Shown here in pieces: positions 19,486-64,000 of a stretch of DNA of 64,000 bases (position 1 is its first letter; each line of letters starts with the position of its first letter). Origin of the DNA: Escherichia phage ECML-4. The DNA lies in sequence record JX128257; one strand, written 5' to 3'. The notes under the pieces were generated by a model. It was not told the DNA's origin and ran no database searches. It was given only the letters and a program-made list of their open reading frames with translations. The position numbers and the translations under genes are program-made.

Positions 19486-19498
19486 ATTGGAGCACACC

Positions 19499-26935: not shown

Positions 26936-26942
26936 TGAAACC

Positions 26943-29071: not shown

Positions 29072-29129
29072 AATAATTCTATTGAAGTCTCTGGGGTTAT
29101 AATAACAAGACGAATAACCCTGGAGACAC

Positions 29130-30584: not shown

Positions 30585-30825
30585 GTACATGAGTTTCTGG
30601 TGGGCGAAGTTCCTTGTTGAACTTCAAATATCCGGCGCGGTGTTTTTGTTACTGTTCTTGATAGCCATGATACCCGTTACACGGAAAGCGATCAAGCAAT
30701 GGCGTTGCAAGCACCCCACCTATCGTGAGAACTACGCATGCCAAGCCATCTGCACACATTGCGGGAAGGATATGGGCTTCGTCGGTATTATTCGCAAAAT
30801 GAAGAATCACAAAGAGGTGTGGTGA
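30577..30825 (+). CDS. hypothetical membrane protein with C-terminal Cys cluster
   Basis: AAGGAG SD; hydrophobic N-terminal half. Confidence 0.45.
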   Translation: MGEYMSFWWAKFLVELQISGAVFLLLFLIAMIPVTRKAIKQWRCKHPTYRENYACQAICTHCGKDMGFVGIIRKMKNHKEVW

Positions 30826-31031
30826 TGAACCAGATGTGTGAGAGGGTGAAAGAATTCATCCACCGGAACCCCAATTGCTCCTACGCGCAGATCGCTGAAG
30901 GTGCCAATATCCCCATGAGTATGGTCAGTGGTTGCCTTCGCGTTTTGATACGCGATGGTCATGTTGTGAAGTATAACCATAAAGATGCTCAGGGTAAAAC
31001 CCTATCTAATTCGTATGATGTTGTGGGTTAG
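30825..31031 (+). CDS. hypothetical small protein (possible winged-helix DNA-binding)
   Basis: Internal ATG of the track ORF 30738..31031, overlapping the previous stop as TGATG; start inferred. Confidence 0.4.
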   Translation: MNQMCERVKEFIHRNPNCSYAQIAEGANIPMSMVSGCLRVLIRDGHVVKYNHKDAQGKTLSNSYDVVG

Positions 31032-31111
31032 AATTGAATTAAGGGGGTTACACCCCCTTTCAATAAATCTATGACAGTATAATTCCAACACATCATCACA
31101 ACGGTATTGTT

Positions 31112-39274: not shown

Positions 39275-39603
39275 TTCACCAACACCTTTTCCAGGAAGAA
39301 GATCATGTCATCCTGGTCGGCACGGCCAAAGATCTGACCGAGGGACACCATGGAATGAACCTCTTTGACAATCAGGTCTTTGCCTGTTGCACCGCTGTTG
39401 TCCAATTCGAGAATTGTAGACATGCGCTCAACCATATGAGGTGGATGATTGATATAACGTTGAAGATACTTTTCACGCAACGCAATTTTTTCGATAAGAT
39501 CTGACATTTCTGCATTCTCTTCTGAATACAGACGTTCTTTAGATTTCAGTTCTTCGAGGCGTTCGTACATTTCTTTTAATGAAATCATGTTTGTCTCTCC
39601 CAA
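39271..39603 (-). CDS. hypothetical protein
   Basis: ORF with GGGAGAG SD. Confidence 0.45.
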   Translation of the reverse strand: MGETNMISLKEMYERLEELKSKERLYSEENAEMSDLIEKIALREKYLQRYINHPPHMVERMSTILELDNSGATGKDLIVKEVHSMVSLGQIFGRADQDDMIFFLEKVLVK

Positions 39604-39650
39604 TAAATTAAGGGGAAGTATACCTTCCCCTTCTTCAATAAAATAAATTA

Positions 39651-49920: not shown

Positions 49921-50112
49921 TCAAATCTTTTTATATGCTTTCAGGGTACAGATAATAGAGACGCCGCCAAATAGAACGAGCAATATGAATCGTTCCATCC
50001 TAAAATCAGGAAGGGAAAGCAGTCCCACAAGGCTGTCTAAAGCAATCATGAACGTTACTCCAGTCAGCATGCCCAACTTAAAGGAGTTGGAACCTCTTTT
50101 GCAACGTAGCAT
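49921..50112 (-). CDS. small membrane protein (two hydrophobic segments)
   Basis: 63 aa ORF with strong GGAGGTGA SD. Confidence 0.4.
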   Translation of the reverse strand: MLRCKRGSNSFKLGMLTGVTFMIALDSLVGLLSLPDFRMERFILLVLFGGVSIICTLKAYKKI

Positions 50113-50159
50113 AAATCACCTCCGATTCAAATGGGGAGTTTCCTCCCCATACAAATTAT

Positions 50160-50663
50160 CTAGCCCAGAAACACTACTAAAGTCAAATTTGTAAAGCAGC
50201 TGCGATTATCTTTTAACATTTGATGGGCAGCGGAAAGGCGCTTAGCATCATGCAGAGTATCTGAAAACACGATGATATTGGCCTTGTCGATTTTGGTCCC
50301 CATAAAATTGGCCATGGTCGACGTTTTCTCTTTTCGATCAAATTTTTCATACTGCTCCCCTGTGGTTACATTTTTCGATTGAGTGAAAAACGTATCACGT
50401 TCACGAGCAGTGTGAAATACACCGAATACGTCGATTTCATTTTCAATTTGGAATTTTTCAGAAAGGAGTTTCTTTAACGCCGCAGTGTGACCAGTCTGGC
50501 GAAGCATTCGATAGTAGAGCATGCTCCCACTGCCTGCGGGATCAAGGTCGTAACGAATCCGGCGGTCTTTTTGAATTTCATACGCATCTAGAACCAATTG
50601 TTGTAGCATTTCAATATGCGCATTAAGGGATACTTCTACTTTTCGTTTAACTAAAGATTTCAT
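50160..50663 (-). CDS. hypothetical protein
   Basis: ORF. Confidence 0.45.
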   Translation of the reverse strand: MKSLVKRKVEVSLNAHIEMLQQLVLDAYEIQKDRRIRYDLDPAGSGSMLYYRMLRQTGHTAALKKLLSEKFQIENEIDVFGVFHTARERDTFFTQSKNVTTGEQYEKFDRKEKTSTMANFMGTKIDKANIIVFSDTLHDAKRLSAAHQMLKDNRSCFTNLTLVVFLG

Positions 50664-50730
50664 TGTTGGAGCCTCGAATTTACGTTCCGCTCATGGGGAA
50701 CATAAAAATTATACCCTTAGACACAACAAT

Positions 50731-50753
50731 GAAAAAGAGGCCGAAGCCTCTTT
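50731..50753 (-). terminator. rho-independent terminator (minus strand)
   Basis: GAGGC-CGAA-GCCTC stem followed by a T-run on the minus strand. Confidence 0.65.
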
Positions 50754-50973
50754 AATCGTCATATTTGCCTGTCCTGAAATTCCATTTCCTGGCCTTGGAT
50801 AGGTCAAGATCTTTGAATATATTACCGAAGATCTTTTTAAACCCTGACTCTTCTTCAAGATCTTTCGGTCTCTTGACAGGTTCTTGAACCATACCGCCTT
50901 CGGGTTTCCCCACATCAGCGGTAGTGGTGGCCGGAGCAGAAGAGTCTTCGAGGTAATCCTGGAAGCTCTTCAT
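50752..50973 (-). CDS. hypothetical protein
   Basis: ORF. Confidence 0.4.
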   Translation of the reverse strand: MKSFQDYLEDSSAPATTTADVGKPEGGMVQEPVKRPKDLEEESGFKKIFGNIFKDLDLSKARKWNFRTGKYDD

Positions 50974-50976
50974 AGA

Positions 50977-51786
50977 TTACACCACAGCCAGTTCACAACG
51001 GGCGGAAGTTACAGAATGGCCGTCCGCGTCTTCTACAACACACCAGTACTCACCCTCAGAAGCAGCGGTGACAGCGTGGTTGACCAGAGACGCAGTCGCT
51101 GCTGTTGGGTTAACACCAGCATCAATCACCACACCTTCGCCGCCAGGGGTGTCAGAGTAATACCACGCATAAGAGTACGGCGTGGTGCCGCCAGCAGCAA
51201 CGATAGTGAATGTCGCATCAGCGCCGTCGGCCACGTCCTGAGAAGCAGCCAGATCGGTTGTCAACGACAACAGTCCTGCGATGGTAATGACGGTAGAATC
51301 GGTGTGATTTCCTTCTACAGTAACACCATAAACTGTAACAGAACCAGACTGAAGCAGTTTGAATTTACCACCGCCGATATGGATCGCCTTCGTCAGGTCG
51401 CCAGAATACCAGTTCACTCCTTGATATGTTGCGTTCACAGGAGCAACAGTGGCCAGCAATTCAACGATTTGGCCTATTTCCCCGCTGGCCGTAGCCGGAG
51501 TAATGGTCAGACCTGTGGTAAGAACAGCAGTCGGATCATGGATTTCATAAGAAACCTGGAAACCTACTGGCTTGGTCGGATCAACTTTGGTGACACCGTC
51601 CGCTTGCAGATTACTTTTGGTCAGCAACGCATCAAGACCTTTACATTCGGTCAGGATCTCATCAGGATCTTGATTTAGGCTGGTTTTTTGCCAACCCTTT
51701 GCAACACCCGTCACGACATGATTGCGTTCGGTTTCCGGTTTGTTGCGGACAACTTCCGGCGCGACTAATACTGTGATTGTTGGCAT
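50977..51786 (-). CDS. Ig-like domain protein (possible Hoc-like capsid decoration or adhesin)
   Basis: Thr/Val/Gly/Ala-rich beta-strand repeats with Ig-like signature (YSYAWYYS ... EYWCVVEDADG); ATG at 51786 with GGAGGA SD. Confidence 0.5.
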   Translation of the reverse strand: MPTITVLVAPEVVRNKPETERNHVVTGVAKGWQKTSLNQDPDEILTECKGLDALLTKSNLQADGVTKVDPTKPVGFQVSYEIHDPTAVLTTGLTITPATASGEIGQIVELLATVAPVNATYQGVNWYSGDLTKAIHIGGGKFKLLQSGSVTVYGVTVEGNHTDSTVITIAGLLSLTTDLAASQDVADGADATFTIVAAGGTTPYSYAWYYSDTPGGEGVVIDAGVNPTAATASLVNHAVTAASEGEYWCVVEDADGHSVTSARCELAVV

Positions 51787-52157
51787 GGTTTCCTCCACTC
51801 ATCCAAATCGTTGTTCAGAGCCATCATCAGCTCGTTATCTGGTTCGTATGAACCGGAACATAAATCATCTCTCCAAACTCCTAACGTCAACAGCGCTGCC
51901 TTTAGACGAGGATGTTGGTTCTTATCCGTTTTCAACACCAGCATTCGACACACAGCTTCAGTTTCGAAAGTATTGAAAAGAATAATCAATTGATTGATAA
52001 GCACACGAGGACTTTTCCCTGGCACAAATCTCTTCAATGATTGATTAATTAGCGAAATTCGCTGAATGTCTACCATCAAATCATCCCGTGAGACACCAGC
52101 AGTGATATAGTGTCTCAGGGCATATTCCATCAAATTGCTTTCGTCAACGATAGCCAT
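51765..52157 (-). CDS. hypothetical protein
   Basis: ORF. Confidence 0.45.
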   Translation of the reverse strand: MAIVDESNLMEYALRHYITAGVSRDDLMVDIQRISLINQSLKRFVPGKSPRVLINQLIILFNTFETEAVCRMLVLKTDKNQHPRLKAALLTLGVWRDDLCSGSYEPDNELMMALNNDLDEWRKPCQQSQY

Positions 52158-52189
52158 ATTGAATTATAATCAGCAGTTATACACTGGGA

Positions 52190-52603
52190 TTATTTAATCT
52201 GGAGTTTTTCAGTCAATTGAGCAATAATTTCATTCCGGTCGGTAGAAACAATTCCCAAAGGTTCGGCCAATGTTTTAAGATCATTGATGTCAAGCAAGAG
52301 AAGGACTTCAACCGTAATATCGGTGGATACCACAGTGCCTGGTTTCATAGGCTTACCGAACTTGTCTAACCCATATCGACGTAAAGTACCCGCCAGCCCC
52401 GTAAGTTCCGCGAGAAGCTCCTTCGTGCCGTCTTTGTATTCACAGACCCAACCGTAGTCACCAGCATAAACGACGCCACCGTCGCCCCCCTGAGGGATGT
52501 TATCCACCACACGCTGGAGATAACTTGGGAGTTTGTTTTCTTCCTGGGCGGTGATTTCCTGGGAAGTTTGGGTATTTTCAATTTTCTTTGGTGTCTTCGC
52601 CAT
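52190..52603 (-). CDS. hypothetical protein
   Basis: ATG at 52603 with AGGAGAA SD. Confidence 0.45.
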   Translation of the reverse strand: MAKTPKKIENTQTSQEITAQEENKLPSYLQRVVDNIPQGGDGGVVYAGDYGWVCEYKDGTKELLAELTGLAGTLRRYGLDKFGKPMKPGTVVSTDITVEVLLLLDINDLKTLAEPLGIVSTDRNEIIAQLTEKLQIK

Positions 52604-52877
52604 GATCAGTTCTCCTATAGACTGTAATGTATTTACCACAGCAATTGCAGCAATAAACGTGCATGGAATATCCGTCGTCATTGAAATCACACCCACCACA
52701 ACGACAGAACAATTTCACAAACTGGTCACCACTGACTTCTCTTGGAGGAAAATTCTTAAACGAGTATTCTCTGAGTTCACCCTCAAATTGGAATGAATCA
52801 ACAAGGAACTTTGTTTTTCGGCGCAGTGATCCAAATGCCTGTTGCTCATACACGAAGTAAACATCTCTGGTTTCCAT
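52578..52877 (-). CDS. hypothetical Cys-rich protein
   Basis: ORF with GAGG SD; CRCGGC and CCNCCG clusters. Confidence 0.45.
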   Translation of the reverse strand: METRDVYFVYEQQAFGSLRRKTKFLVDSFQFEGELREYSFKNFPPREVSGDQFVKLFCRCGGCDFNDDGYSMHVYCCNCCGKYITVYRRTDHGEDTKEN

Positions 52878-52885
52878 ATTAACCT

Positions 52886-52912
52886 CAAAGAAAAGGAGGC
52901 CGAAGCCCCCTC
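52886..52912 (-). terminator. rho-independent terminator after rIIB (minus strand)
   Basis: GGGGGC-UUCG-GCCUCC stem (with one G-U pair) followed by UUUUCUUUG on the minus strand. Confidence 0.65.
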
Positions 52913-52930
52913 TTTTATGTCAGTTCGCGG

Positions 52931-54514
52931 TTACTTGTACAGACCGTCAACGTCAATAGATTTATGTTGGCGGTTGTATTCCGTGGTATAGTCATCCAAC
53001 ACGAGATATTCACAGCAGCGGATTTTACTAGAACCGTAATCATCAGTGATAGACACGATGTCTTTCGGGTTCAGTTTACAACGCACAACCCGCTGGCCCA
53101 GGCTACCGAAACATTGTTTCAGATACGCCAGAGAACAAACGTGAAGACCATAGGAGCACAGGTCTTTGTTGTTATCGTTCACGAATGAGCGAGCCATCCG
53201 GACGATAGTGCCAGGTGCGTTGCTGACTTTACCTGTGCGCTTATCCATATAATTTCCGCGAACGGATTTGTATAGAATAATGTCGCCGTCTTCATGAATC
53301 TCAATGTCTGAGTATGCCATGAATTCATAGATCCGACCAGACTGAACCAGAGCAGCGCTCGGGTTTTGGAACATCTTGTCAAGGAAACGGCCCAAGCGTT
53401 CCAAGTTCGGATAATCGCCTTTTAATGCCAAAGCCAAAATGCGTTTGGCAACGGAAGTTCCGGTGATATCATATCCACCCCAGCGAACACGGTTGTCTGA
53501 AAGATCAACCATGCCTGTAGTGAATTGTTTGATGGCTTCACGCGGTTTCATCAGAGTGTAAGCTGTTTTGACGTCACGATTTTTAATCGCTTCAACAATA
53601 CGGTCATACGCCTGGTGGCTCGTTGTGATCGTTTCCGGTTTACCATCGACCACAATCACGATACTTTCCGGCAAAATCATGATCTGGTGTTCGTTCAGGA
53701 ACACAGACAGTTCTTTTTCATTAAATGAATTCTGAGTTTGCTTGTCGCCTGTTTCTTCAACAACTGCAACCGTCTTGACCACGAATAATACGGATGACAA
53801 TGCCAGACGAAGTGTACGGCCTAAAATTGCATCAAAGTAACCCACGCGCCGACGGGCATCAAGGGAACCGCGCATCGGATATGTTTCACCGTCATGCTGT
53901 ACGCTGATTTTCACACCATCATTGACTTTAACCACACCATCAACCAATGCAGTAGCCAGTTCTGCTAACGGCGAAATATTTTCTTCATTGAAGCGGCTTG
54001 ACCGAGTTTCTAACGGTTTCAGTTCTTCGCTTCTGAAAAGTTTGGCCTGAATAGCAGCAGAGCTATCATAACGCATACAGATAAACACTGTTTGGTTTTC
54101 CAGGAAACGGCCAACATACCATTCTTCGTCTTCAGAATCGACAGACACCGAACCTTCCAGAACTTCATAGGTGTCGGGGATTTTCCCTTCTTCAGTCAAT
54201 TCTTTAATTGGCGAAATCACGACCACGTTATTAGATTCTTTGATGATACGAACCATCAGGGCGCGGGCAATTGTTTTGGCACTGACACCATAAACTGATG
54301 CCAGAGAAGAATTGCTTTCACCTTTGCTGCTCTTGGTTTGTATTTCTTGAATCTGTTCAGTGGTCAGAGACTTAATCGAAGCCGGATCCACTCCCAGTTC
54401 TTTATCCGACACGCGTTGTATCATTGAGCGCGGTACGCCCAATTCACTGGCTATTGAACTTTGACTTCTGTTCTCATTCAACAGCTTGAGAATACGTTTT
54501 TCTATAGCATTCAT
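52931..54514 (-). CDS. rIIB: rIIB-like protein
   Basis: Directly downstream of the rIIA-like gene; N-terminal helix-turn-helix-like segments. Assignment is mainly by synteny. Confidence 0.55.
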   Translation of the reverse strand: MNAIEKRILKLLNENRSQSSIASELGVPRSMIQRVSDKELGVDPASIKSLTTEQIQEIQTKSSKGESNSSLASVYGVSAKTIARALMVRIIKESNNVVVISPIKELTEEGKIPDTYEVLEGSVSVDSEDEEWYVGRFLENQTVFICMRYDSSAAIQAKLFRSEELKPLETRSSRFNEENISPLAELATALVDGVVKVNDGVKISVQHDGETYPMRGSLDARRRVGYFDAILGRTLRLALSSVLFVVKTVAVVEETGDKQTQNSFNEKELSVFLNEHQIMILPESIVIVVDGKPETITTSHQAYDRIVEAIKNRDVKTAYTLMKPREAIKQFTTGMVDLSDNRVRWGGYDITGTSVAKRILALALKGDYPNLERLGRFLDKMFQNPSAALVQSGRIYEFMAYSDIEIHEDGDIILYKSVRGNYMDKRTGKVSNAPGTIVRMARSFVNDNNKDLCSYGLHVCSLAYLKQCFGSLGQRVVRCKLNPKDIVSITDDYGSSKIRCCEYLVLDDYTTEYNRQHKSIDVDGLYK

Positions 54515-54546
54515 CTTGTAGTTCTCACTGTGGGGTAATGGGGCTA

Positions 54547-57288
54547 TTATGCCCCGAGAATACGTTTTGAAATAGCCTTCACAAATCTAGTGGCATCTTC
54601 AATCGCATTATGCGCCGTTGGCTGATATTTTGACATCATGAATTTCACCAAACGATGACATTCAACTCGGTATCGGTTTTTGGCCTTTTGCTTTTGAGAT
54701 ATAGTGCTAGTGACCTTTATCTCATCAAATCCTTCAGCAGTTAATTTTTCATTCAATAAATCAACAACTTGAGTTAACTGGTTACAGGCGCGGAAAAATC
54801 TCGTAGTTGAGAAAGGCATTTCTATACGATAATGTAATTCCTCAACAGCCTTGCGGAAATAACCGTACCCCGATCCAGACGGGTTTCGTTTGGCCAGCAT
54901 ACGAACAACCTTCCATTCTTCTTCAGTGATTTGTTGTTTCGCATAACCGATGATTGCTTTTGCCCTGTGTTGATGATGAGCATAGCCATCCGTAACTTCT
55001 CCATGGGAATCAATCAACAGCTTGGCACCATAATCAATGCGATGAGACATGATGTTTATGCCCTTGCGAAGTTTCAGGAGTTTCTTAGATTCAAGCGCCT
55101 GAAATTCATCTTTATAATGCTCAAGCAACATATCAAACACTGCGTCAATGGGGATGAATACTTCTGGGAATTTCTTCATCATCGGAACAGATTTACGACG
55201 CGCAAGAACGATTGTTGGATGCGCTCCCAGCAAATCAAACATGTTTTCGTTTCCATTCTCGCCGAACTTCGTTCTTTCCATCGCTTCACGCAAATGTCCA
55301 GCCGTGGATTGTCGTAAGGTATTACCATGAATTTTATGGATACCTTCTCGGCCAGATACTTCGATATATACGATCTTTTTGCCTGAATCAATAATATCTG
55401 AAACGGTTTTTCCATCCAATTCATAAACGCTGTCGAAGTTAAATGAATTGTAATGGAAACTAAACATCCCAGGATCTTTTTCAACGGTCGGGCGAACATA
55501 TTCCATTTCATGCATGAAATAAACTTCATCCGGATTGAATAAATCGCCAAAAACCTCGATCAGTTTATCGGCAAAGACCAGGTAGTCCGGTGTTGTTTCT
55601 TGTACACCGATCCATGATTCAAAATAAGACTTCAATTCCTCATGGTTGGTGAATGATTCTTTATGTGCCGCCAGCTGATTCCGATTACTGAAATAATTTT
55701 CATTCGGTTTGACGACGATAACGACATTGAAGTTATTACGTGCTGTTTGTATCTTCAGGTTTCGAGCACGATTCGAGTTATCAATAATAACAGCAATTTT
55801 TGATTTAGATTTCAACCAATTTCCGACAGAGTTCACATAAATGCTGTCGTGTACTACACCGTCGTCGTGTACTTCAATTTCGTAAGGACTACCAATAGAC
55901 CGGAAAGGTGCATCCACAGAGTAATCGCGCACGACGTCCGGCGCTCCGATATAACGGAACGTGCCTTTGTAGAAACGGTTATCTGCAGGAAATTCTCGCT
56001 CCACTAATTTACGGAAACCGCTACCGAACATATCGGTCAATTGAGCCTTCTTCATATAAAGCATAAGAGGACCCATAGATTCGGCCTGGCGAAGTTCATA
56101 CATCTTCGCCTGCATAATATTGTCAGCCACATATTTGAACACTCGGTTCAGGCTTTCACGGGTGAACTCGTCATATGACAAGTCTTCACGTGATGGAGGA
56201 ACATTCAATTCTCCAAGTTCAAAGAATGTATAGGAACTCGGGAATTTCTCCAGCACCGAACGTATTTCAGAATCCAATTGCTCAAGATCTATCGGATAAG
56301 AAACCCCGCCCATAACAGCATAGTGGGTATTATCAGAATCAGACTTCGGCTGAATATACGTGTTGCCCACACGGTTTTCAAAATTGATGTCCTGCCAGCG
56401 GAAAGAATAACTGGCATTTTCAACCTTCGGGCGCATTGATGGGCGCATAACTCGACCCAGACGGACCAGTTCTTGTTCAAATGCAGTAAATCGCTGATTC
56501 TTTACAGGCACTTTAACAGTCAGACCATTGAACTCATCAGTGTCTTCTGGTTTCGGATCACGGGTGTCCAAATCCTTGGTGATCAGGTCCACAGTAGGAA
56601 TCCTGTCCGCATTCAGATACATAAGGAAGCGATACAGTTTACCTTCATAACGACTTTCTACAGTAAATGAGTCCGACACTGCAAATGGGGATTTAGAACC
56701 CAGCCCGAACGCGCCGATCTGCCCGTCGTCGTCCTCTTTGGTGCTATGGAAGAGTGTTGTGTACAAACCAGGTCCACGGATGATCTCGCCGTCCTCAGCG
56801 CGGAATACCAACACCCCATTGTAATAACCAGGCGTCCCAATAACAGCAGTGCTGTCAGGGATTTCATCTTCCTTCACAACAATGTTGCCTTCGACAAGCA
56901 CTTCATCTTCCCGCGCTGCGATAGGTTCACCGATAATCATTTCTAACGGAAGGCCAATCCCATAATCCTTGATTTCCAGCCATGGTTCCATAACATCAGG
57001 TAAATGGACCACAACGGGCGTCCCTTTGGGAGCAAGATGCTTGCTGTATCTTTGGGGCATAGGGGTAAGAGGGGCATAATGGGACGGCAACCAACGCTGT
57101 TGGCGATCACGCATATTATGCGAGTCTATACCGTTACATAACGTCTCACGCAAAGATGCGGCCTCTTTATATTTGTAGAGACTTGAGAACAATGTTTCAA
57201 ATAATTTATCCGTCATCTTGACATTAAATGTCTGTCCGACGATAGTGGAAGAAGAGCGCACGAAATGCTCAGACTTGCGCATTTTCAT
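54547..57288 (-). CDS. rIIA: rIIA-like protein with GHKL-type ATPase domain
   Basis: 913 aa; GHKL motifs (DYGIGLP, GAFGLGSKSPF) in the N-terminal third, as in T4 rIIA. Confidence 0.65.
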   Translation of the reverse strand: MKMRKSEHFVRSSSTIVGQTFNVKMTDKLFETLFSSLYKYKEAASLRETLCNGIDSHNMRDRQQRWLPSHYAPLTPMPQRYSKHLAPKGTPVVVHLPDVMEPWLEIKDYGIGLPLEMIIGEPIAAREDEVLVEGNIVVKEDEIPDSTAVIGTPGYYNGVLVFRAEDGEIIRGPGLYTTLFHSTKEDDDGQIGAFGLGSKSPFAVSDSFTVESRYEGKLYRFLMYLNADRIPTVDLITKDLDTRDPKPEDTDEFNGLTVKVPVKNQRFTAFEQELVRLGRVMRPSMRPKVENASYSFRWQDINFENRVGNTYIQPKSDSDNTHYAVMGGVSYPIDLEQLDSEIRSVLEKFPSSYTFFELGELNVPPSREDLSYDEFTRESLNRVFKYVADNIMQAKMYELRQAESMGPLMLYMKKAQLTDMFGSGFRKLVEREFPADNRFYKGTFRYIGAPDVVRDYSVDAPFRSIGSPYEIEVHDDGVVHDSIYVNSVGNWLKSKSKIAVIIDNSNRARNLKIQTARNNFNVVIVVKPNENYFSNRNQLAAHKESFTNHEELKSYFESWIGVQETTPDYLVFADKLIEVFGDLFNPDEVYFMHEMEYVRPTVEKDPGMFSFHYNSFNFDSVYELDGKTVSDIIDSGKKIVYIEVSGREGIHKIHGNTLRQSTAGHLREAMERTKFGENGNENMFDLLGAHPTIVLARRKSVPMMKKFPEVFIPIDAVFDMLLEHYKDEFQALESKKLLKLRKGINIMSHRIDYGAKLLIDSHGEVTDGYAHHQHRAKAIIGYAKQQITEEEWKVVRMLAKRNPSGSGYGYFRKAVEELHYRIEMPFSTTRFFRACNQLTQVVDLLNEKLTAEGFDEIKVTSTISQKQKAKNRYRVECHRLVKFMMSKYQPTAHNAIEDATRFVKAISKRILGA

Positions 57289-57361
57289 AGTATAGAATTC
57301 CTATTCAGTTTCAAAGGGAACACATTATTGGGGTATGGGTATGATACTAGCGGGGGACTCA

Positions 57362-57390
57362 ATAGAAAAAAGCCTCCAAAAGGAGGCTTA
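57362..57390 (-). terminator. rho-independent terminator (minus strand)
   Basis: AGCCTCC-TTTT-GGAGGCT stem followed by TTTTTTCTATT on the minus strand. Confidence 0.7.
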
Positions 57391-57397
57391 ATCAGGT

Positions 57398-57751
57398 TTA
57401 ACTCTGGTCTACATTTACAACGGCAGCGTTAAAGTTGAATGTCGGATGGGTAGCGCCTGGCTCTAACGTTTCTTCCAGATAACCCGCGATATTCCGCACC
57501 ACGGTTTTAGGCTCAGAACGTGAAGGCTTCGTTGCTCCAAGTTCAATGATACTGGAAGTAACTTGTTCGACTTGGGTGTGAGCCACAACAAAATGGTAAC
57601 GACTACCAAACGCCGCCACTTCAACTTCTGTAATTTCCAAACCACTCAATTCAGAGCTGCTCAACTGCTTCACATTCAGTTGTGAACGAAGGTGTTCCAC
57701 AATGTTGCTATAAACATATTGTGGCGTGATCAGCTGTTCAATAGAACTCAT
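57398..57751 (-). CDS. hypothetical protein
   Basis: ORF with ATGA overlap to the upstream ORF. Confidence 0.45.
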   Translation of the reverse strand: MSSIEQLITPQYVYSNIVEHLRSQLNVKQLSSSELSGLEITEVEVAAFGSRYHFVVAHTQVEQVTSSIIELGATKPSRSEPKTVVRNIAGYLEETLEPGATHPTFNFNAAVVNVDQS

Positions 57752-57951
57752 GACATATCCTCATTTCTTTGGGGGTTATTGTTACTTAACCGGACGACCT
57801 CTGCTCGAAGGAAAAGGATTTCATCGGCCATTATCTTTCCCTCTTCAAACATCACATGGCAACGTGATAATCTGGGTTCGCCTTCAGATAATGCGTGAAG
57901 ACGATATTCAGGGATGACATCATTTACGACGTTTCTTTTTGTTCTTTCCAT
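57748..57951 (-). CDS. hypothetical protein (start uncertain)
   Basis: Internal ATG of the track ORF 57748..58038; overlaps the alternative-frame ORF 57920..58126. Confidence 0.3.
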   Translation of the reverse strand: MERTKRNVVNDVIPEYRLHALSEGEPRLSRCHVMFEEGKIMADEILFLRAEVVRLSNNNPQRNEDMS

Positions 57952-58126
57952 GGATCTTGGCCTTTTTAGGACGACTAACGGAAGGACGGGCATGCCCAGG
58001 CTCCCCAGGGGTACAACCTTGGGCATAACGTTGGTCATCCCAGAGGCGTCCTTTGTGAGACATATCTTCAGCCATCGCGGACAAGGCGAGGGTTGCTACA
58101 GCCGCAGCAGATAATGGTTTAGACAT
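57920..58126 (-). CDS. small protein with signal-peptide-like N-terminus and Lys-rich C-terminal tail
   Basis: ATG at 58126 with AGGAGA SD. Confidence 0.35.
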   Translation of the reverse strand: MSKPLSAAAVATLALSAMAEDMSHKGRLWDDQRYAQGCTPGEPGHARPSVSRPKKAKIHGKNKKKRRK

Positions 58127-58565
58127 CTGTTTCTCCTTTTGCTGCATATGCCAGTGCTTTTACAATCATCACGGCCAATCCGATTGGGTCGCACGTACCT
58201 TCGAATTCTTGTTCTAAAATCTCACGTATTTCATCAGAAGATTGTACTTCGGAGCAGTTCTTGCTCTGTCGACGTTGTTCTTGCTCAACGAGGTCTTTGA
58301 ACAGAAGGTCTTTGAAAGAATACTCATCGAAGTTTTCCAGATACTGCTGGATACTTGGTTGTTTCGCATCCATCGTTCTACGCAGATTGCTGATAGTTGT
58401 ACTCGCCTGTTCGCGGTGTTTGTTCATAACGGAAAAGTTCACGGGTTTTCCCCAAGCGTTCGTCACTGTGTTGGAACATACTTGTCCGAAGAGATCTTGG
58501 AAGGCGTCATCCAGATGAATCAGCGCGGCGGCCAGTTCATCATAAGTTGGTTTTTGAGCAGTCAT
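58119..58565 (-). CDS. hypothetical protein
   Basis: ORF. Confidence 0.45.
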   Translation of the reverse strand: MTAQKPTYDELAAALIHLDDAFQDLFGQVCSNTVTNAWGKPVNFSVMNKHREQASTTISNLRRTMDAKQPSIQQYLENFDEYSFKDLLFKDLVEQEQRRQSKNCSEVQSSDEIREILEQEFEGTCDPIGLAVMIVKALAYAAKGETDV

Positions 58566-58945
58566 TTTCGTTTATTCCTATTTTTAGATTTCTTGGCTTG
58601 ACGTTTATGCTGAGCGGCTCCATACAAGCGCGGAGGCTTTTGATAACGCTGTGAGGCAATTATATCCCTGTAGTCGGCTTCGGCTTCACAGCAAGAAACA
58701 TCCGTTCTTCGTAATTGCGCGACCGCTTGTGACACCAGCATTTTACGTTCGCTTTCTACCAGGTCATCACAAATTATCATGCGCTCGCCTGGTTCACAAC
58801 GACGTTTGGGAATGTCGTCAACACTGATGCATTCCACCTCAACGCCTTTCAATTTTTCTTGAAGGATGATGGCCATAGTACGAGCGCCCACCCCTCCTCC
58901 AATAATTGCAATCTTTCTTGGCTTGTCAGACATAATACATTCCAT
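58562..58945 (-). CDS. hypothetical protein with Gly-rich dinucleotide-binding-like motif and basic tail
   Basis: IAIIGGGVGA motif; Lys/Arg-rich C-terminus. Confidence 0.45.
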   Translation of the reverse strand: MECIMSDKPRKIAIIGGGVGARTMAIILQEKLKGVEVECISVDDIPKRRCEPGERMIICDDLVESERKMLVSQAVAQLRRTDVSCCEAEADYRDIIASQRYQKPPRLYGAAQHKRQAKKSKNRNKRK

Positions 58946-58949
58946 AAAA

Positions 58950-58995
58950 AAGAGGATAGAGCAATAATACCCTATCCCCCTTTATTGAAGAACGA
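58950..58995 (-). terminator. terminator-like hairpin within a repeated intergenic element (minus strand)
   Basis: Minus-strand CGTTCTTCAATAAAGGGGGATAGGG-TATTATTGC-TCTATCC then TTTTTT. Confidence 0.55.
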
Positions 58996-59421
58996 TTAGT
59001 CTTTGGATTCTACTTTATCACCACGCAGATCCTGGACGGGTTTGCCATCCGGCGACATGATGTAGATGGTGTTAATTGTTTCAAACCAAGACAGTTCATC
59101 AACTCCTTCAGTGTATGGAGTTACCGGAACTGAAGTTTTGATATGATCACCAACGTTATTTGGGGCACCATCAGACTTCAGCACTGGCTCCAGGAAGGCG
59201 AAACGACCATTTGGATAAATCACCCCGCCTTTGAACATGCGAATCTTCTTGCGAGGGTTGTTAGCCTCACCAAGACACACCACCAGATGATGAATCATCT
59301 CAGGGCGGGTGAGCAACGTGTCGTCACGGATGATCCCCTGTTTGATAGCAGAGATCACCACTTCATCCAACAAAGCCTGTTGCTGTTCCAGAGTCAAAGA
59401 TTCAGTAAGTTTCACGCTCAT
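58996..59421 (-). CDS. hypothetical protein
   Basis: ORF. Confidence 0.45.
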   Translation of the reverse strand: MSVKLTESLTLEQQQALLDEVVISAIKQGIIRDDTLLTRPEMIHHLVVCLGEANNPRKKIRMFKGGVIYPNGRFAFLEPVLKSDGAPNNVGDHIKTSVPVTPYTEGVDELSWFETINTIYIMSPDGKPVQDLRGDKVESKD

Positions 59422-59424
59422 GGT

Positions 59425-59994
59425 CTAACCTTTGAAATTAATTGGGTTCTGAACCCCAGAGTCAAACGCGGCCTGGGTACGGGTATCGCTCACCACCTGA
59501 CAGGTCTTTTCGAGATCGATGCGAGGGTATCCAAAGATGCCAGCAATGACAGATCCAGGGAACTGGCCGAGTTTGGTTTCATAGATAGCACACGCATCTA
59601 ATTTCTTTGTCTGGCTGATACGGAATTCATCACGTCCTGAACTGATGACCACCTGAATTTCTTTGTACAGGCTTGAATCAAACTGGATGTTCTGTTCCTG
59701 GATCCATTGCATAACCGCCTTTGAACCATCAGCACCATAACGACCCTGGAAAGTATCTTTGATCACTTCTTTCAGACCGTCTTTGTACAGGCCAGGTATC
59801 TGAGCCGTCTCTTGTACTTTGTTTGTATAGTTGCTCAGATGGTTTTCAGAATCTTTATTGAACTTTTTGACTTGCTGTTCAATACGATTGAAATCATTGA
59901 AATAACTGACGAAACTACCAACACCGATTACAACAAAAGCCAGAATCGCCAAACCGATGATCCAACCAATTGAAATACCTTTACGCTGCGACAT
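59425..59994 (-). CDS. LemA-family membrane protein (putative)
   Basis: N-terminal TM anchor and C-terminal FPGSVIAGIFGY motif resembling the LemA signature. Confidence 0.5.
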   Translation of the reverse strand: MSQRKGISIGWIIGLAILAFVVIGVGSFVSYFNDFNRIEQQVKKFNKDSENHLSNYTNKVQETAQIPGLYKDGLKEVIKDTFQGRYGADGSKAVMQWIQEQNIQFDSSLYKEIQVVISSGRDEFRISQTKKLDACAIYETKLGQFPGSVIAGIFGYPRIDLEKTCQVVSDTRTQAAFDSGVQNPINFKG

Positions 59995-60009
59995 CTTTAC
60001 TTCCTCTTG

Positions 60010-61119
60010 TTAAAACAAACGTTTGTAAGTGCGACCATTGTACTGCATATGGCCTAATATGAAAATTGCGGTAAACGGAACACAACCTAATAAAACGACG
60101 ATAATCACTTCCCATGTCTTGAGGTCACGCCATTTCAGATACTCCATTTCCTTCATTTCAACACGGTTATAGCCTTTGCTGATATTGACTGCAACTTCTT
60201 GGAATACTGATATCCCCATGGGTTTGCCAGTCAATGAAAGACCGTTTCGGGAATGAAGTTCCATGTTATTCATCCCATCAGCAAATGACGTGGATTTACC
60301 CCAATTGATTTTCATATCCTTCGATATGTCAGTAACCACAATGACATCGTTCTTTTTACCACCAGACCATGCATATAGCAGCCCCTGAAAATATTCCACA
60401 GGCTGGCCAGAAGTCACTACCCACACGATATTGACCTGACGTGATGCCCCCAATGTTTTCAAAGTGTTGTTCAGATAATCATTCCAATAATCAACGGGAA
60501 TATCCATCCCTGACATATTCAGAACACGAGTCACCCGATAATAATCATACACCCTTGGATATGACGGGATATGGTCTTTGAACTTCTCAGCGAATTGTTG
60601 GTCAGATTTGGAGAATAAAGAATCCTTGTTCCCTAGAACATAGTTCATATATGCATGTTCACGCGCTGCAGGTTCTCCGATTTTAACTTGCGCCCAACGC
60701 GGGGGCTCTGTAGTACCCTGACGATCAATACGGTCAATGCTCAGATCACCGACGGATGTTAATACGTCCCAATCAACGTCATAAGAGTGCTCATAGCACG
60801 TGCTGCAATGACGCGTTTGTGTACAAGATCGGTTATTTCCTGAACCAGAGCAAGAAGTTGTGTAATAGCACATACATTCATAAGAATGGCTACAACCCAC
60901 CTTATTTCGTTGCTTGTCAGTAACGTATCCATTCAAAATTTCAACATCTCCCGAACTACCCAGGGAAAATGCAGCGTATGCTCCCGCCTGGATAAGACAG
61001 GATAATACAACCACTATCGCAGTAGCAATTAGCGTTTCTTTTGGTTCATGGGTTTTGCGATGGTAAACCACGAACAATATGGCTAAAATAATAGGGACCA
61101 CAAACAGAAGGTAAATCAT
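60010..61119 (-). CDS. Cys-rich integral membrane protein (two N-terminal TM helices, one C-terminal TM helix)
   Basis: Hydrophobic termini flanking a Cys-rich domain (CSHSYECMCYYTTSCSGSG ... CSTCY). Confidence 0.5.
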   Translation of the reverse strand: MIYLLFVVPIILAILFVVYHRKTHEPKETLIATAIVVVLSCLIQAGAYAAFSLGSSGDVEILNGYVTDKQRNKVGCSHSYECMCYYTTSCSGSGNNRSCTQTRHCSTCYEHSYDVDWDVLTSVGDLSIDRIDRQGTTEPPRWAQVKIGEPAAREHAYMNYVLGNKDSLFSKSDQQFAEKFKDHIPSYPRVYDYYRVTRVLNMSGMDIPVDYWNDYLNNTLKTLGASRQVNIVWVVTSGQPVEYFQGLLYAWSGGKKNDVIVVTDISKDMKINWGKSTSFADGMNNMELHSRNGLSLTGKPMGISVFQEVAVNISKGYNRVEMKEMEYLKWRDLKTWEVIIVVLLGCVPFTAIFILGHMQYNGRTYKRLF

Positions 61120-61502
61120 AACACACCATCCACGAGTTGTTCCTTCGTCATACCAAGAAGTTGATTTTTATGACCTGATTCAGCTCCATTTTTCAACAAC
61201 AGATCCCAACGTTCTTCATGATACTGTGGAGTCATTGCATCGTCAAAAGAAACATGGTGGCGATGCATAATTGTTGCAACGGTATGAAGAACGATTGCTG
61301 TCGCTCTTTTTAAAGCACGTGTATCAGTGATATGGTCTTCATATTCAATACCCATCAAATCGAGTTCTTTCCGAATATATGCAATAGACAAATCACCTTC
61401 AGAATGCAATTTAACAATAGTCGCTTTCTTAGGATGTAACACGCCGTCTGTTTCTTTCATGAACAGATCGTACAAATATTGTTTGTATTCGGGGCGCATC
61501 AT
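61116..61502 (-). CDS. hypothetical protein
   Basis: ORF with start/stop overlap. Confidence 0.45.
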   Translation of the reverse strand: MMRPEYKQYLYDLFMKETDGVLHPKKATIVKLHSEGDLSIAYIRKELDLMGIEYEDHITDTRALKRATAIVLHTVATIMHRHHVSFDDAMTPQYHEERWDLLLKNGAESGHKNQLLGMTKEQLVDGVL

Positions 61503-61738
61503 CTCGTAATCCCTCCGGCACAGATAATATTCAGTTCACCGCGACGGAAACCGCCTTGCCCATCGTCCAACTTAGTCAGAGGTGTATGTGCATCTCGAAC
61601 TTTCTGAGCGAACTCTTCCGACACCACCAGATGACCCATCAGAGGAGTCTTTTCTTGTTTTGGGGTGGATTCAAAATAGTCACCGAACGTCGCTTCCATA
61701 TCCAGCACAGACATATCTTCAATTCGTTGCATTGCCAT
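61499..61738 (-). CDS. hypothetical protein
   Basis: ORF with AGGAAA SD. Confidence 0.45.
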   Translation of the reverse strand: MAMQRIEDMSVLDMEATFGDYFESTPKQEKTPLMGHLVVSEEFAQKVRDAHTPLTKLDDGQGGFRRGELNIICAGGITR

Positions 61739-61744
61739 GATGTA

Positions 61745-61815
61745 TTTCCTTGTAAAAGAAAGGGGAACGGGCTAATAATAACCCATTCCCCTTTATTGAA
61801 GAACGCAATCGCAGT
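61745..61815 (-). terminator. terminator hairpin within a repeated intergenic element (minus strand)
   Basis: Minus-strand CGTTCTTCAATAAAGGGGAATGGG-TTATTATTAG-CCCGTTCCCC then TTTCTTTT. Confidence 0.6.
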
Positions 61816-61819
61816 CAGA

Positions 61820-61987
61820 TTACTTTTTCTTCAGCTCTTCCAGCTTGGCTTCAATTTGGTCCAGAATCTCTTTACCTTTCTGGACGATGGCTTCACCGTC
61901 TTGCGCGTGTTTACGAAAAACCAGAGCGCCAGCAATGAAACCAACAACCACGCCTGGGAGCGCATACACCAACAGATCTTGTAACAT
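61820..61987 (-). CDS. small single-pass membrane protein (55 aa) with its own late promoter
   Basis: ORF below the 60 aa track cutoff; GTGAGGAT SD; TATAAATA 31 nt upstream; one TM helix; terminator downstream. Confidence 0.4.
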   Translation of the reverse strand: MLQDLLVYALPGVVVGFIAGALVFRKHAQDGEAIVQKGKEILDQIEAKLEELKKK

Positions 61988-62017
61988 GATTTATATCCTC
62001 ACTTTTATAAGCAAGGA

Positions 62018-62025
62018 TATTTATA
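62018..62025 (-). promoter_or_regulatory. T4-type late promoter motif TATAAATA (minus strand)
   Basis: Exact TATAAATA upstream of the small ORF starting at 61987. Confidence 0.45.
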
Positions 62026-63261
62026 TCATCGTTTCAACAAAGACATGAGGTTTACACTGGTCGACTTCGGATTGTCATCTATCTTCCGGACGGGCATTTT
62101 CAGATTAGTGTAAACCTCAGATGGTTCCCAACGCGTACCCTGCTGCAGGTGCCAAATATGAAGAGGAACACCCGTCTCAAAGAACACAGGCATCTTCCAC
62201 TTCTGGACGCCAGGAACGTGCCCTGCAGGAGCTTTTTCGCATAACAAGGTATCTGGTAGCCAGAGGGAACGGGCTTCCCATAATGCCTTACAGGAGTACT
62301 CAGGCCAGATGCGTTCCATGTAGTCGATCTCATCCCAAGTACGCTCAGCATCCCACCCGATGTAACGAGTGTTTTTCAGACGGAAGAATTTCTTAAGCCA
62401 ACAAGCACCGGAAGTCTCAAAGTTCAAACGATTGATGAACGTGATGTGACCAAACTCGGCGACACAATCTTTGAATGCCTGTTCAAGATCAGCCTCAAGG
62501 ATGTCGCATTCTTCATCGGTGATAGGACAGCCGTTGATCTTTTTCTTTCCGTGCTTGGTCACCCAGTCGTCACGGTTTGACAAGAATGCCGCGCCGTTGC
62601 GGTTGGACTCACTACCATCACGGTCACGCAACATGAACCCAGGGACGTCGATCTGATACATGTTGCCGAATACCATGTTCAGGGCTTCCAGGAAGTTCCA
62701 GGCGCTCAGGCGACCGAAGTATTTCCATCCCATAGCCGTGTCCCATAGCTTAACGAATTGATCACTTTGCAGTTTAGTCTCCAACAACGGACGGAAAGCA
62801 TCCATCTGAGTACGACCAGCTAGCCAATCAATGTAGGACTGAACACACGGGATCATCTTCGATTTGCGATAGCGGCAATCAGTATCGAATCGCATACGCT
62901 CGAAGTTCAGGTTATACCAATCACAGAATCGCTTGAACTCTTGTGGTGACTGAGGCGGTACAGGAAACTCACTATAAATCGTCCATGGGCCAATCCCATT
63001 ATAACAACAGCCCCAAAGGAACGCCATCCAGATCTTGCGCTCGATCTTCTCAAGCTGTGTAATGCCTTCAGTGACTTCAATCGCATAATCCATCAGACGA
63101 ACTTGTTGGTTGTGTTCTTCCGTATACGACAGCGCCTCCACCCATGCTTTGAGCAGATACATCCGATTCTCTGGCTTACGATAATCGATTGACAAATCAA
63201 TTGGGTACTTCCATTCAGCCGGAGGCGTATAACCTGTCGGCATTTTAGATAGATGCGTCAT
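62026..63261 (-). CDS. hypothetical protein (411 aa, Trp/Cys-rich)
   Basis: Long ORF; no domain assignable by eye. Confidence 0.5.
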   Translation of the reverse strand: MTHLSKMPTGYTPPAEWKYPIDLSIDYRKPENRMYLLKAWVEALSYTEEHNQQVRLMDYAIEVTEGITQLEKIERKIWMAFLWGCCYNGIGPWTIYSEFPVPPQSPQEFKRFCDWYNLNFERMRFDTDCRYRKSKMIPCVQSYIDWLAGRTQMDAFRPLLETKLQSDQFVKLWDTAMGWKYFGRLSAWNFLEALNMVFGNMYQIDVPGFMLRDRDGSESNRNGAAFLSNRDDWVTKHGKKKINGCPITDEECDILEADLEQAFKDCVAEFGHITFINRLNFETSGACWLKKFFRLKNTRYIGWDAERTWDEIDYMERIWPEYSCKALWEARSLWLPDTLLCEKAPAGHVPGVQKWKMPVFFETGVPLHIWHLQQGTRWEPSEVYTNLKMPVRKIDDNPKSTSVNLMSLLKR

Positions 63262-63619
63262 CCTTCACCTCGGCTTCGAGTTGGATATCTTCAGGGTTTA
63301 AAACGGGCTGGCCCAAAGACCAAATTGGAAGGAACCGACGGTCATTGGATACTACCCAGATTTGCTTGGCGGTTTTCGTTTTTTCAGAAATATAATGCTG
63401 GGCATTAACCTGAGTCCGTGCCAGCCCAATTTGCCGCCATGCACCGAAATCTTTAGAAGATGGATTGGTGTTCAGCTGGAATTGGGGAATGATTTTATTC
63501 TGTTCCGGATAATATCGGACAGCGTTAATCATATTGGCATCGCCACGATAGTCAACAGCAATAGCAATGGCATTGCGTGGAATAAGAATTTTCATTTTAA
63601 TTCCTTTTGAAACTTTCAA
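63245..63619 (-). CDS. hypothetical protein
   Basis: ORF. Confidence 0.4.
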   Translation of the reverse strand: MKVSKGIKMKILIPRNAIAIAVDYRGDANMINAVRYYPEQNKIIPQFQLNTNPSSKDFGAWRQIGLARTQVNAQHYISEKTKTAKQIWVVSNDRRFLPIWSLGQPVLNPEDIQLEAEVKDDASI

Positions 63620-63800
63620 TTATGTTGTAAACGAACGGCGTTAATAAAGCAACACCGCCCGAATAATATAACGCGTAAACATTCAATATTTCGGTTGAGT
63701 CTAATTCAACGATGCCCAAATATTTCATAACACCGACAAGCATAGCTGAAAAGCACATCACCAGACCGACGAACACAAAATATTTAGACATCTTTTTCAT
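63597..63800 (-). CDS. small membrane protein
   Basis: 67 aa with two hydrophobic segments. Confidence 0.4.
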   Translation of the reverse strand: MKKMSKYFVFVGLVMCFSAMLVGVMKYLGIVELDSTEILNVYALYYSGGVALLTPFVYNIIESFKRN

Positions 63801-63803
63801 TAT

Positions 63804-63992
63804 CTACGCCTTACGCATTAGCCCCAGAAGGGACACGGATGAGGTCTTTGGTTCTTCCTTGGCGACGGCCTTGTTTTTAGTTTTGGATGCCTTCTGCGGC
63901 TTCTCAGGCACTCTGTGAGCCAAAGGATCCTGACCGCCGACTTCACGCGTCATCGGATTGGTTTCGCAATAGCCGTAGAAGTCTTTCGACAT
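63804..63992 (-). CDS. hypothetical protein
   Basis: ORF near the window end. Confidence 0.35.
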   Translation of the reverse strand: MSKDFYGYCETNPMTREVGGQDPLAHRVPEKPQKASKTKNKAVAKEEPKTSSVSLLGLMRKA

Positions 63993-64000
63993 CAGATTGT

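Follow-up and report, generated by a model that had tools for sequence, protein, structure and literature searches.

In the 64,000 nucleotides of the Escherichia phage ECML-4 genome analysed here (sequence record JX128257; "the window" in the following), a short intergenic element occurs in two copies. It is somewhat probable, in our view, that each of them joins a terminator to a promoter in one composite cassette whose sense strand is the minus strand. That both copies are strong intrinsic terminators is well supported at the sequence level. Promoter activity is inferred because the geometry is fixed, the position relative to the genes is appropriate and exactly those bases are conserved that a promoter would need. 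The main evidence is the constant distance between an eight-base box, TTCAATAA, and a -10-like hexamer, which a preliminary description of the element had not remarked on. This description had proposed a coupled terminator-promoter cassette reused throughout the genome; the terminator, the spacing, a family of about ten cassettes, their conservation and an annotation in Dickeya phage LIMEstone1 all speak for it, while the promoter half remains putative and lacks a canonical -35.

Two copies of one intergenic element

Sequence comparison of positions 57000-63000 unveiled 99% identity to Kuttervirus phages (Ackermannviridae, ViI/CBA120/Det7 group), with vB_Hercules_SET (OP423032.1) and SJ2 (NC_023856.1) as top matches. 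The gene calls of SJ2 were transferred onto the window and provide the gp numbers of its genes. Genome-wide counts were made on the entire assembled genome of Hercules_SET (157 kb), the closest complete genome, and the nearly complete assembly of LIMEstone1, which belongs to a different subfamily, was taken as the second genome for comparison. In addition, 24 related loci (L-numbered) were taken from IMG/VR via the adjoining ADDT gene gp126, with protein identities of 54-100%. The 62-nt sequence of copy 1 matches 269 phage records, mostly at two places per record, and the named hosts among them fit the range of the Ackermannviridae, being mainly Salmonella, Klebsiella, Escherichia, Dickeya, Shigella and Serratia.

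Copy 1 is the whole 62-nt gap (58934-58995, minus strand) between gp119 (58996-59421) and gp118 (58562-58933), and copy 2 lies within the 81-nt gap (61739-61819, minus strand) between gp125 (61820-61987) and gp124 (61499-61738). Both belong to a block of small open reading frames (ORFs) reaching from the ADDT gene to rIIA, within a long co-directional gene cluster. The two minus-strand copies reported in the preliminary description were recovered: the 18-mer CGTTCTTCAATAAAGGGG is found exactly twice in the window, both times on the minus strand (58977-58994 and 61788-61805), against a mean of 0.09 matches in shuffled sequences, none of 100 shuffles containing two. The long shared stretch including stem and loop likewise held, with 29 of the first 32 bases being identical in an ungapped comparison and the same stem and loop sizes in both folds. 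Along the minus strand, both copies have the same order and open with the stop codon and (C)GTTCTTCAATAAA; the G-rich 5' arm, the AT-only apex with its TATTAT and the 3' arm come next, and a T-run, a Shine-Dalgarno sequence (SD) and ATG close the series (Table 1). The loop had been given as TTATTATT, which is roughly right, but the apex, AT-only throughout, closes to a loop of 4 nt. The 12-mer of copy 1 forms a quasi-palindrome, TTCTT-C-AATAA. As for the gene downstream of copy 1, the gp118 product belongs to DUF7231, carries an N-terminal Rossmann-type glycine motif (KIAIIGGGVGA) and shows a weak match to Pyr_redox_2.

RNA folding revealed a 16-bp stem with a UUAU loop in each copy. The sense RNA reaches -26.7 kcal/mol in copy 1 (z -6.85) and -28.9 kcal/mol in copy 2 (z -4.86), with none of the shuffled sequences folding as well, whereas the antisense RNA reaches only -8.8 and -19.7 kcal/mol, respectively. 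This difference between the strands arises because several stem pairs are G-U, and it points to a function at the RNA level. A U-rich tract directly follows the stem in both copies (TTTTTT and TTTCTTTT). A G+C-rich stem-loop with a U-run directly past a stop codon is the usual make-up of an intrinsic terminator; orthologous hairpins carry a terminator annotation in four public records (vB_SenM-AKM_ssTn OR122688.1, LIMEstone1, Menlow and Mutine). In LIMEstone1, the copy 2 ortholog is annotated as a terminator only (148135-148173). An ordinary terminator would require neither the conserved single-stranded 5' flank nor an invariant loop nor a fixed distance between the two. An Rfam search with the element gave no match above threshold, the sub-threshold ones being P31 (26.9 bits, threshold 40) and psbA 3'UTR (24.1 bits, threshold 55.8).

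A box at a fixed distance from a -10-like hexamer

The box TTCAATAA occurs 43 times in Hercules_SET, compared with about 10 occurrences under a Markov null, and at least 19 of the 43 are intergenic although intergenic DNA makes up 7.6% of this genome. Sites of the N12 class were defined as TTCAATAA followed, after 11-14 nt, by a hexamer matching TATAAT in at least five of six positions. Hercules_SET contains 11 exact sites of this kind versus 0.06 under a Markov-1 null (maximum of 1 in 100 runs), with a sharp spacing peak at N12 formed by six sites, copies 1 and 2 among them; with one box mismatch permitted, 20 matches were obtained versus 2.75 expected. When all 65,536 8-mers were ranked by their counts 11-14 nt upstream of -10-like hexamers, TTCAATAA came first both in Hercules_SET (11) and in LIMEstone1 (7), and a control with 279 permuted boxes gave 0.15 on average and 4 at most. 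About 15 of the Hercules_SET sites lie 27-66 nt upstream of an annotated start codon on the same strand.

In about 10 of the Hercules_SET sites, the hexamer is placed in the apex of a hairpin, usually with a T-run behind it, and copies 1 and 2 are the most similar pair in this family of about 10 cassettes per genome. Five box-hexamer sites have no overlapping hairpin, and the pattern is therefore independent of the hairpin. The distance from the box to the base of the stem ranges from 0 to 7 nt, whereas the distance from the box to the hexamer is constant at 12±1 nt, as promoter geometry at the DNA level predicts and as an element acting at the RNA level would not.

Conservation and plasticity among relatives

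Copy 1 is present in 20 of the 24 related loci, with TTCTTCAATAAA, GGGATAGGGTATTATTGCTCTATCCC and the spacing essentially invariant, and this holds where gp118 falls to 36-39% identity. Its hexamer TATTAT is invariant in all orthologs examined, and the few changes in the stem are wobble-preserving or compensatory (T to C giving G-C, G to A giving U-A). At the position of copy 2, the box is intact in every locus bearing the element, including the distant loci L026-L028, and the 12-mer varies in its flanking bases only (TTCCTTCAATAAA in L031, TTCTTCAATAAG in L019). The copy 2 orthologs were folded one by one, L018-type sequences being 1 nt out of register in an ungapped alignment. Their apex appears as TTATTATTA, TTAATATTA or TTATATTT, and their hexamers read TATTAT, TAATAT, TATATT, GATAAT, TATGAT or, shifted by 1 nt in the inverted hairpin of L010, AATAAT, with A2 and T6 kept in all. 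In L026-L028, a different stem sequence is still combined with box-N12-(G/T)AT(G/A)AT at the loop. Every version of copy 2 retains the box, the 12-nt spacing (13 in L010), the A2/T6 hexamer and, in unchanged register, a hairpin. In LIMEstone1, conservation follows the same lines at the site downstream of the DNA polymerase gene as at the two copies. At the sequence level, the family of putative cassettes is conserved across the compared Ackermannviridae, comprising two subfamilies and the distant loci L026-L028.

The surroundings of copy 2 are plastic. In L010 (6456-6523), the hairpin is the reverse complement of window positions 61759-61794 (GGGGAACGGGTTAATAATAACCCATTCCCC versus GGGGAATGGGTTATTATTAGCCCGTTCCCC) and has been inverted in place, its antisense RNA being the more stable one (-27.1 versus -21.6 kcal/mol). 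About half of the relatives (L008, L009, L011, L013, L015, L020-L022 and L031) carry an insertion of about 200 nt with a 60-codon ORF (MTPQYKILVTSRCYAYGQGEAISVH...) between the T-run of copy 2 and the SD of gp124 (about 6500-6725 in these loci; window equivalent 61739-61751). In Klebsiella/Serratia-type loci (L018, L023-L025 and L029), neither gp125 nor gp124 is present, and the cassette comes straight after the ADDT gene. Each of these indels is bordered by one cassette.

Proposed mechanism

In the proposed mechanism, the same bases would act twice. At the RNA level, the G+C-rich 16-bp hairpin, G-U pairs included, together with the U-run would stop transcripts arriving from the upstream gene. 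At the DNA level, they would form a promoter: the box TTCAATAA, inside the 11-mer TTCTTCAATAA, would occupy about -32 to -25, the hairpin's 5' arm would serve as a 12-nt spacer and its apex as the -10 hexamer TATTAT. Transcription would start about 7 nt past the hexamer, within the 3' arm (near 58957 and 61768, as placed by standard -10 geometry). Made without the 5' arm, new transcripts would be unable to fold into the terminator and would continue past the U-run to gp118 or gp124, so that transcription may be reset at the gene boundary.

How the box might be recognised is more speculative: it is probably read by a phage or host factor, for which we can name a candidate only. Such a factor is proposed because the box is not a sigma-70 -35, sits at the position of the T4 MotA box and is quasi-palindromic. 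We put forward as a tentative and rather doubtful suggestion that TTCAATAA (TTMTT-S-AAKAA) is the recognition box of a new Ackermannviridae transcription factor and defines the missing middle or delayed-early promoters of ViI-like phages. If so, the box would be, at about -30 and 12 bp from the -10, the functional counterpart of T4's MotA box, with neither MotA nor AsiA taking part; where it is present in TTTACT early promoters, in the spacer and upstream, the same factor could use it to switch them off; and each small gene, its promoter embedded in a terminator hairpin, would form a unit that is insulated and dependent on the factor. The small protein gp76 (68 aa, window 30825-31031, plus strand) has sub-threshold winged-helix matches to FeoC-like, HTH_24 and MarR_2 (E about 1e-3), and its gene is located immediately upstream of the TTCAATAA-N11-TATAAT site at 31059. 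As a candidate small DNA-binding regulator, it may serve as a lead, the sole one so far, to the factor reading the box.

The gene gp126 (62026-63261, minus strand) encodes an amino acid:DNA transferase (Pfam ADDT, E 3e-58), which takes part in the pathway by which ViI-like phages hypermodify thymidine. In virion DNA, the T-rich box and the -10 hexamers would consequently bear modified thymidines, and this could alter their recognition.

Points against a promoter and alternative explanations

Several observations weigh against a promoter in the cassettes. TATTAT matches the -10 consensus in five of six positions, but the best -35 in the two copies is TCTTCA (three of six positions, 16-nt spacer) and there is no canonical sigma-70 -35; the TG of an extended -10 is not present either, TATTAT being preceded by GGG or GGT. 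A consensus scan for sigma-70 promoters and terminators over 50000-64000 called neither copy as a promoter, with the total of promoter-like calls equalling the shuffle expectation and hence uninformative. Most public annotations have the sites as terminators only or leave them unannotated, and transcript 5' or 3' ends were not found for any Ackermannviridae phage in the searchable literature. The exact N12 match at position 22083 of Hercules_SET was discounted as a promoter, its "hexamer" overlapping an SD and a start codon. The box is also found at N6-N10 within early-promoter spacers and need not have a uniform role across sites. In addition, the variation of the copy 2 apex and the inversion in L010 indicate that part of the hexamer signal could reflect AT-rich loops. 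As to transcript-derived contigs bearing gp118, all ten among the matches listed were assembly contigs of 19-160 kb and held no transcript-end information. Two other promoter layouts were rejected, namely TTCAAT as the -35, for which the spacer would be 14 nt, and an antisense promoter on the plus strand (TTGAAG...), for which the two copies have no -10 in common.

A first alternative is plain intrinsic terminators whose shared flank and apex go back to common descent or to gene conversion of paralogous spacers, the hexamer being incidental. The textbook terminator anatomy of both copies, the prevailing annotations and the outcome of the sigma-70 scan agree with this, as do the loop of copy 2, which drifts among relatives and is inverted in L010, and the pairing of the box AAA with the U-run, common in terminators. 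However, a plain terminator needs neither a conserved single-stranded TTCTTCAAT nor an invariant loop, and copy 1 keeps both where the flanking proteins are 36-70% identical; box-N12-hexamer recurs far above chance at non-homologous sites, some of them hairpin-free, and distant genomes have swapped the stem and retained the box, the spacing and A2/T6 of the hexamer. We consider plain terminators an unlikely explanation. Less likely still is that the 11-mer TTCTTCAATAA mainly binds a dimeric regulator as its operator, for instance one repressing early transcription, and is not an RNA polymerase element, its adjacency to hairpins being secondary. This near-palindrome, in the degenerate form TT(A/C)TT-(C/G)-AA(T/G)AA, is found 13 times in Hercules_SET (null 0.75) and nine times in LIMEstone1 (null 0.48), nearly always in intergenic regulatory spacers and in both orientations, and the reversed copy at 39631 is conserved in LIMEstone1. 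Two of the three Hercules_SET early promoters with a box in the spacer (15587 and 62117) hold two copies 18-22 nt apart, the first upstream of the -35 and the second within the spacer, as does the LIMEstone1 ortholog of 62117 (94281/94303). This is a typical repressor layout; the recurrence of the palindrome and its double copies at early promoters suggest a dimeric DNA-binding factor. On the other side, the candidate binding protein is limited to the sub-threshold match of gp76, the left half-site of the 11-mer is poorly conserved among N12 sites, and a pure operator leaves the sharp 12-nt spacing to the hexamer unexplained. An operator is also only partly a rival, since it would be compatible with the composite cassette if the factor were an activator.

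An RNA processing or stability element, in which the AU-rich single-stranded UUCUUCAAUAAA offers an RNase E-type entry and the hairpin shields either the upstream mRNA at its 3' end or the downstream mRNA at its 5' end, would suit an AU-rich segment directly 5' of a very stable, sense-specific hairpin between cistrons of a long co-directional cluster. The conserved distance, however, runs from the box to the hexamer and not to the stem base, the box has the same spacing at hairpin-free sites and is also found in DNA promoter spacers and in either orientation, and no Rfam family exceeded its threshold, so that we regard such a role as highly improbable. Recombination would be an additional role that excludes none of the others: the cassettes could act as short homology or boundary points at which small ORFs are gained, lost and exchanged, a role proposed for the stem-loops of T4-type phages discussed below. 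We see this as possible, if on the doubtful side. The insertion immediately 3' of the copy 2 hairpin, the loss of gp125 and gp124 with the cassette retained, the inverted hairpin of L010 and the 29 of 32 nt shared by the copies can be read in its favour, but the indels are bordered by one cassette and not two, an identity of 18-32 nt is short for homologous recombination, neither chimeric cassettes nor circles were observed, and small-ORF regions of phages are variable anyway. The plasticity at copy 2 fits a module-boundary role without proving one.

Comparison with known promoter-hairpin systems

In T4 middle promoters, the MotA box is situated about 12±1 bp upstream of the -10. The cassettes resemble this arrangement in that a box near -30, at 12±1 from a TAnnnT -10 (TATTAT-type), takes the place of the -35, and differ from it in that the box is TTCAATAA and not a MotA box with a TGCTT core. 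A stem-loop is added in the PmSLs; the PmSL of Vibrio phage nt-1 combines a Mot box, a TATTAT -10 and a stem-loop (Comeau 2014, PMC4122927). CBA120 and other ViI-like phages are reported to have no MotA/AsiA homologs, and their early and middle promoters could not be identified (Kutter 2011, PMC3184105). A different factor, or none, would thus be involved here.

Promoter-early stem-loops (PeSLs) have been described in the T4-type phages RB49/phi1, PST/T4 and nt-1/KVP40 (Arbiol 2010, PMC2839356; Comeau 2014, PMC4122927). In RB49/phi1, the stem-loop is most often located in the interval separating the -35 from the -10 or over the -10, and promoter and terminator activity were shown experimentally (PMC2839356); a role in shuffling small ORFs was proposed (PMC2839356; PMC4122927). 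Like PeSLs, our cassettes are short repeated intergenic terminator stem-loops with a promoter-like sequence, followed by SD and ATG. Their stem-loop also overlaps the -10, the apex carrying the hexamer and the 5' arm acting as spacer, and they are present in many copies (about 10 in Hercules_SET) among small variable ORFs of uncharacterised function. Indels adjoin copy 2, each of them next to a single cassette. In contrast, PeSL promoters are near-consensus sigma-70 promoters (TTGACA-N17-TATAAT or TTTACW...TAYWAT), while here TTCAATAA stands 12 nt from the hexamer and no -35 is found; PeSLs belong to Straboviridae and the present cassettes to Ackermannviridae; and the promoter, terminator and mini-circle activities of PeSLs were shown experimentally, the terminator and promoter of the cassettes being predicted. 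Sharing the PeSL architecture but having neither a sigma-70 -35 nor a Mot box, they are treated as a variant of PeSLs and not as a member.

A terminator-plus-promoter reading is already contained in one public record. In LIMEstone1 (HE600015.1), the copy 1 ortholog is annotated as a terminator (150767-150799) overlapping a minus_10_signal, "putative promoter" TATTAT (150776-150781), and this -10 was picked by similarity to Dickeya -10 boxes (Adriaenssens 2012, PMC3296691). The annotation includes neither the box nor the fixed spacing nor the genome-wide recurrence. A search of the literature for the motif, for transcriptomes of Kuttervirus or Ackermannviridae and for studies of their promoters gave nothing relevant; the "conserved regulatory sequences" of a "Viunalikevirus" paper lay outside the coverage and could include the box.

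Among k-mers upstream of -10-like hexamers, box-N12-hexamer gives the strongest signal in two subfamilies and offers a concrete candidate for the missing promoter class of ViI/CBA120-like phages, as well as a bait for its factor. These phages are widely used in biocontrol of Salmonella, E. coli O157, Klebsiella and Dickeya. If the composite cassettes are what they appear to be, the overlap of promoter and terminator would extend the PeSL design principle beyond T4-type phages, with relevance for the annotation and engineering of these genomes and for understanding the exchange of small accessory genes.

Other sites carrying the box

Three kinds of sites had been merged in the preliminary description: members of the N12 class, early promoters of a TTTACT class and, at 39631, a reversed occurrence in antisense. 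The recurrences of the core that it listed at 390-418 and 26943-26971 are real, but they belong to the early-promoter class, which differs from the cassettes. A further one, placed at about 31045-31075, turned out to be a genuine box-hexamer site that follows a hairpin without overlapping it. The related arrangement claimed for 39604-39650 on the plus strand contains the exact 12-mer, but its order is reversed and it is antisense to the genes, so that it was rejected as a third member of the cassettes. All positions are listed in Table 1.

Table 1. Features of the two copies and of other sites with the box or with promoter-hairpin overlap (window positions).
Feature	Position	Strand	Basis or remark
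Copy 1, TAA stop of upstream gene (gp119 homolog)	58996-58998	-	ORF list and SJ2 coding sequence mapping
Copy 1, 12-mer TTCTTCAATAAA	58981-58992; TTCAATAA box 58982-58989	-	12 nt upstream of hexamer
Copy 1, hairpin 5' arm AAAGGGGGATAGGGTA, doubling as putative promoter spacer	58968-58983	-	RNA fold
Copy 1, -10-like hexamer TATTAT	58964-58969	-	T1 and A2 in stem top, TTAT as loop
Copy 1, hairpin 3' arm TGCTCTATCCTCTTTT	58948-58963	-	RNA fold; predicted start within arm
Copy 1, T-run TTTTTT after GC-rich stem	58946-58951	-	Partly paired with upstream AAA
Copy 1, ATG of gp118 (DUF7231)	58931-58933	-	SJ2 coding sequence mapping
Copy 2, TAA stop of upstream gene (gp125 homolog)	61820-61822	-	ORF list and SJ2 coding sequence mapping
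Copy 2, 12-mer TTCTTCAATAAA	61792-61803; box 61793-61800	-	
Copy 2, hairpin 5' arm AAAGGGGAATGGGTTA	61779-61794	-	RNA fold
Copy 2, -10-like hexamer TATTAT, hairpin apex	61775-61780	-	
Copy 2, hairpin 3' arm TAGCCCGTTCCCCTTT	61759-61774	-	Predicted start within arm
Copy 2, T-run TTTCTTTT	61754-61761	-	
Copy 2, SD AAGGAAA (61745-61751) and ATG of gp124 (61736-61738)	61736-61751	-	
Same class as the copies, TTCAATAA-N14-TATAAT, hexamer in loop of hairpin GATCATAGGG/CTCTATGATC	26178-26216	+	Upstream of gp69
Same class as the copies, TTCAATAG-N13-TATAAT, hexamer in loop of terminator GGGGCTGC/GCAGCTCC with T-run	19442-19486	+	
Box-hexamer without overlapping hairpin, TTCAATAA-N11-TATAAT	31059-31083	+	Directly after separate hairpin, upstream of gp77
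Different class, T4-early-like promoter TTTACT-17-TATTAT	390-418	+	TTCAATAA in spacer, TTATTGAA-like sequence upstream
Different class, promoter TTTACT-17-TATCAT	26943-26971	+	Just after terminator hairpin, TTCAATAA in spacer
Exact 12-mer in reversed context (hairpin 5' of 12-mer)	39631-39642	+	Abuts gp88/gp87 terminator hairpin on its opposite side, antisense to flanking genes

In LIMEstone1, the ortholog of the site at 26178 keeps box and hexamer and shows compensatory changes in the stem (GTCATAG/CTATGAT to GTCGTAG/CTACGAT). The early-like promoters form a strong class of their own, (G)TTTAC(T/A), 16-17 nt, TATAcT or TATTAT, and are found in the window at 385-421, 7135-7180, 18350-18410 and 26930-26971, the LIMEstone1 ortholog of 390-418 being annotated as a promoter. 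Several of them are nearly identical over TTTACTTCTTCAATAA (Hercules_SET 15587, 62117 and 97321), with the box 6-10 nt before the -10. A sequence of the TTATTGAATAA type is often found upstream in this class, and a terminator hairpin often comes shortly before the -35 or lies around it; the window members typically follow such a hairpin. At window positions 39589-39650 and LIMEstone1 13815-13860, the 11-mer is present as its reverse complement, TTATTGAAGAA, directly next to the gp88/gp87 hairpin (5' side, sense strand), the loop of which holds TATAC(T). In the comparison with LIMEstone1, TTATTGAAGAA and the hairpin are conserved at this site, and a conserved antisense -10 is not seen. Since LIMEstone1 keeps the arrangement, a box next to a hairpin can have one orientation or the other.

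Between gp73 and the DNA ligase gene (29072-29132, plus strand), there is a 14-bp hairpin with two G-U pairs (GTCTCTGGGGTTAT...ATAACCCTGGAGAC), which has TATAAT in its 5' arm and loop and the SD of the ligase gene (GGAG) in its 3' arm, 5 nt ahead of the ATG. The hairpin may control translation or be a further case of a promoter overlapping a hairpin.

A stretch of about 6.8 kb (16710-23522), also present in Hercules_SET, has no counterpart among the mapped annotated genes of SJ2 (NC_023856.1); in Hercules_SET it includes thymidylate synthase, kinase and hydrolase genes. Between such very close relatives, either a large indel or differing assemblies account for this. Finally, (T/C)TAAATAC(C) recurs upstream of structural and late genes (1530-1599, 3340-3360, 12677-12713 and 16436-16489); it resembles the T4 late promoter TATAAATA, and its positions match "putative late promoter" annotations of LIMEstone1.

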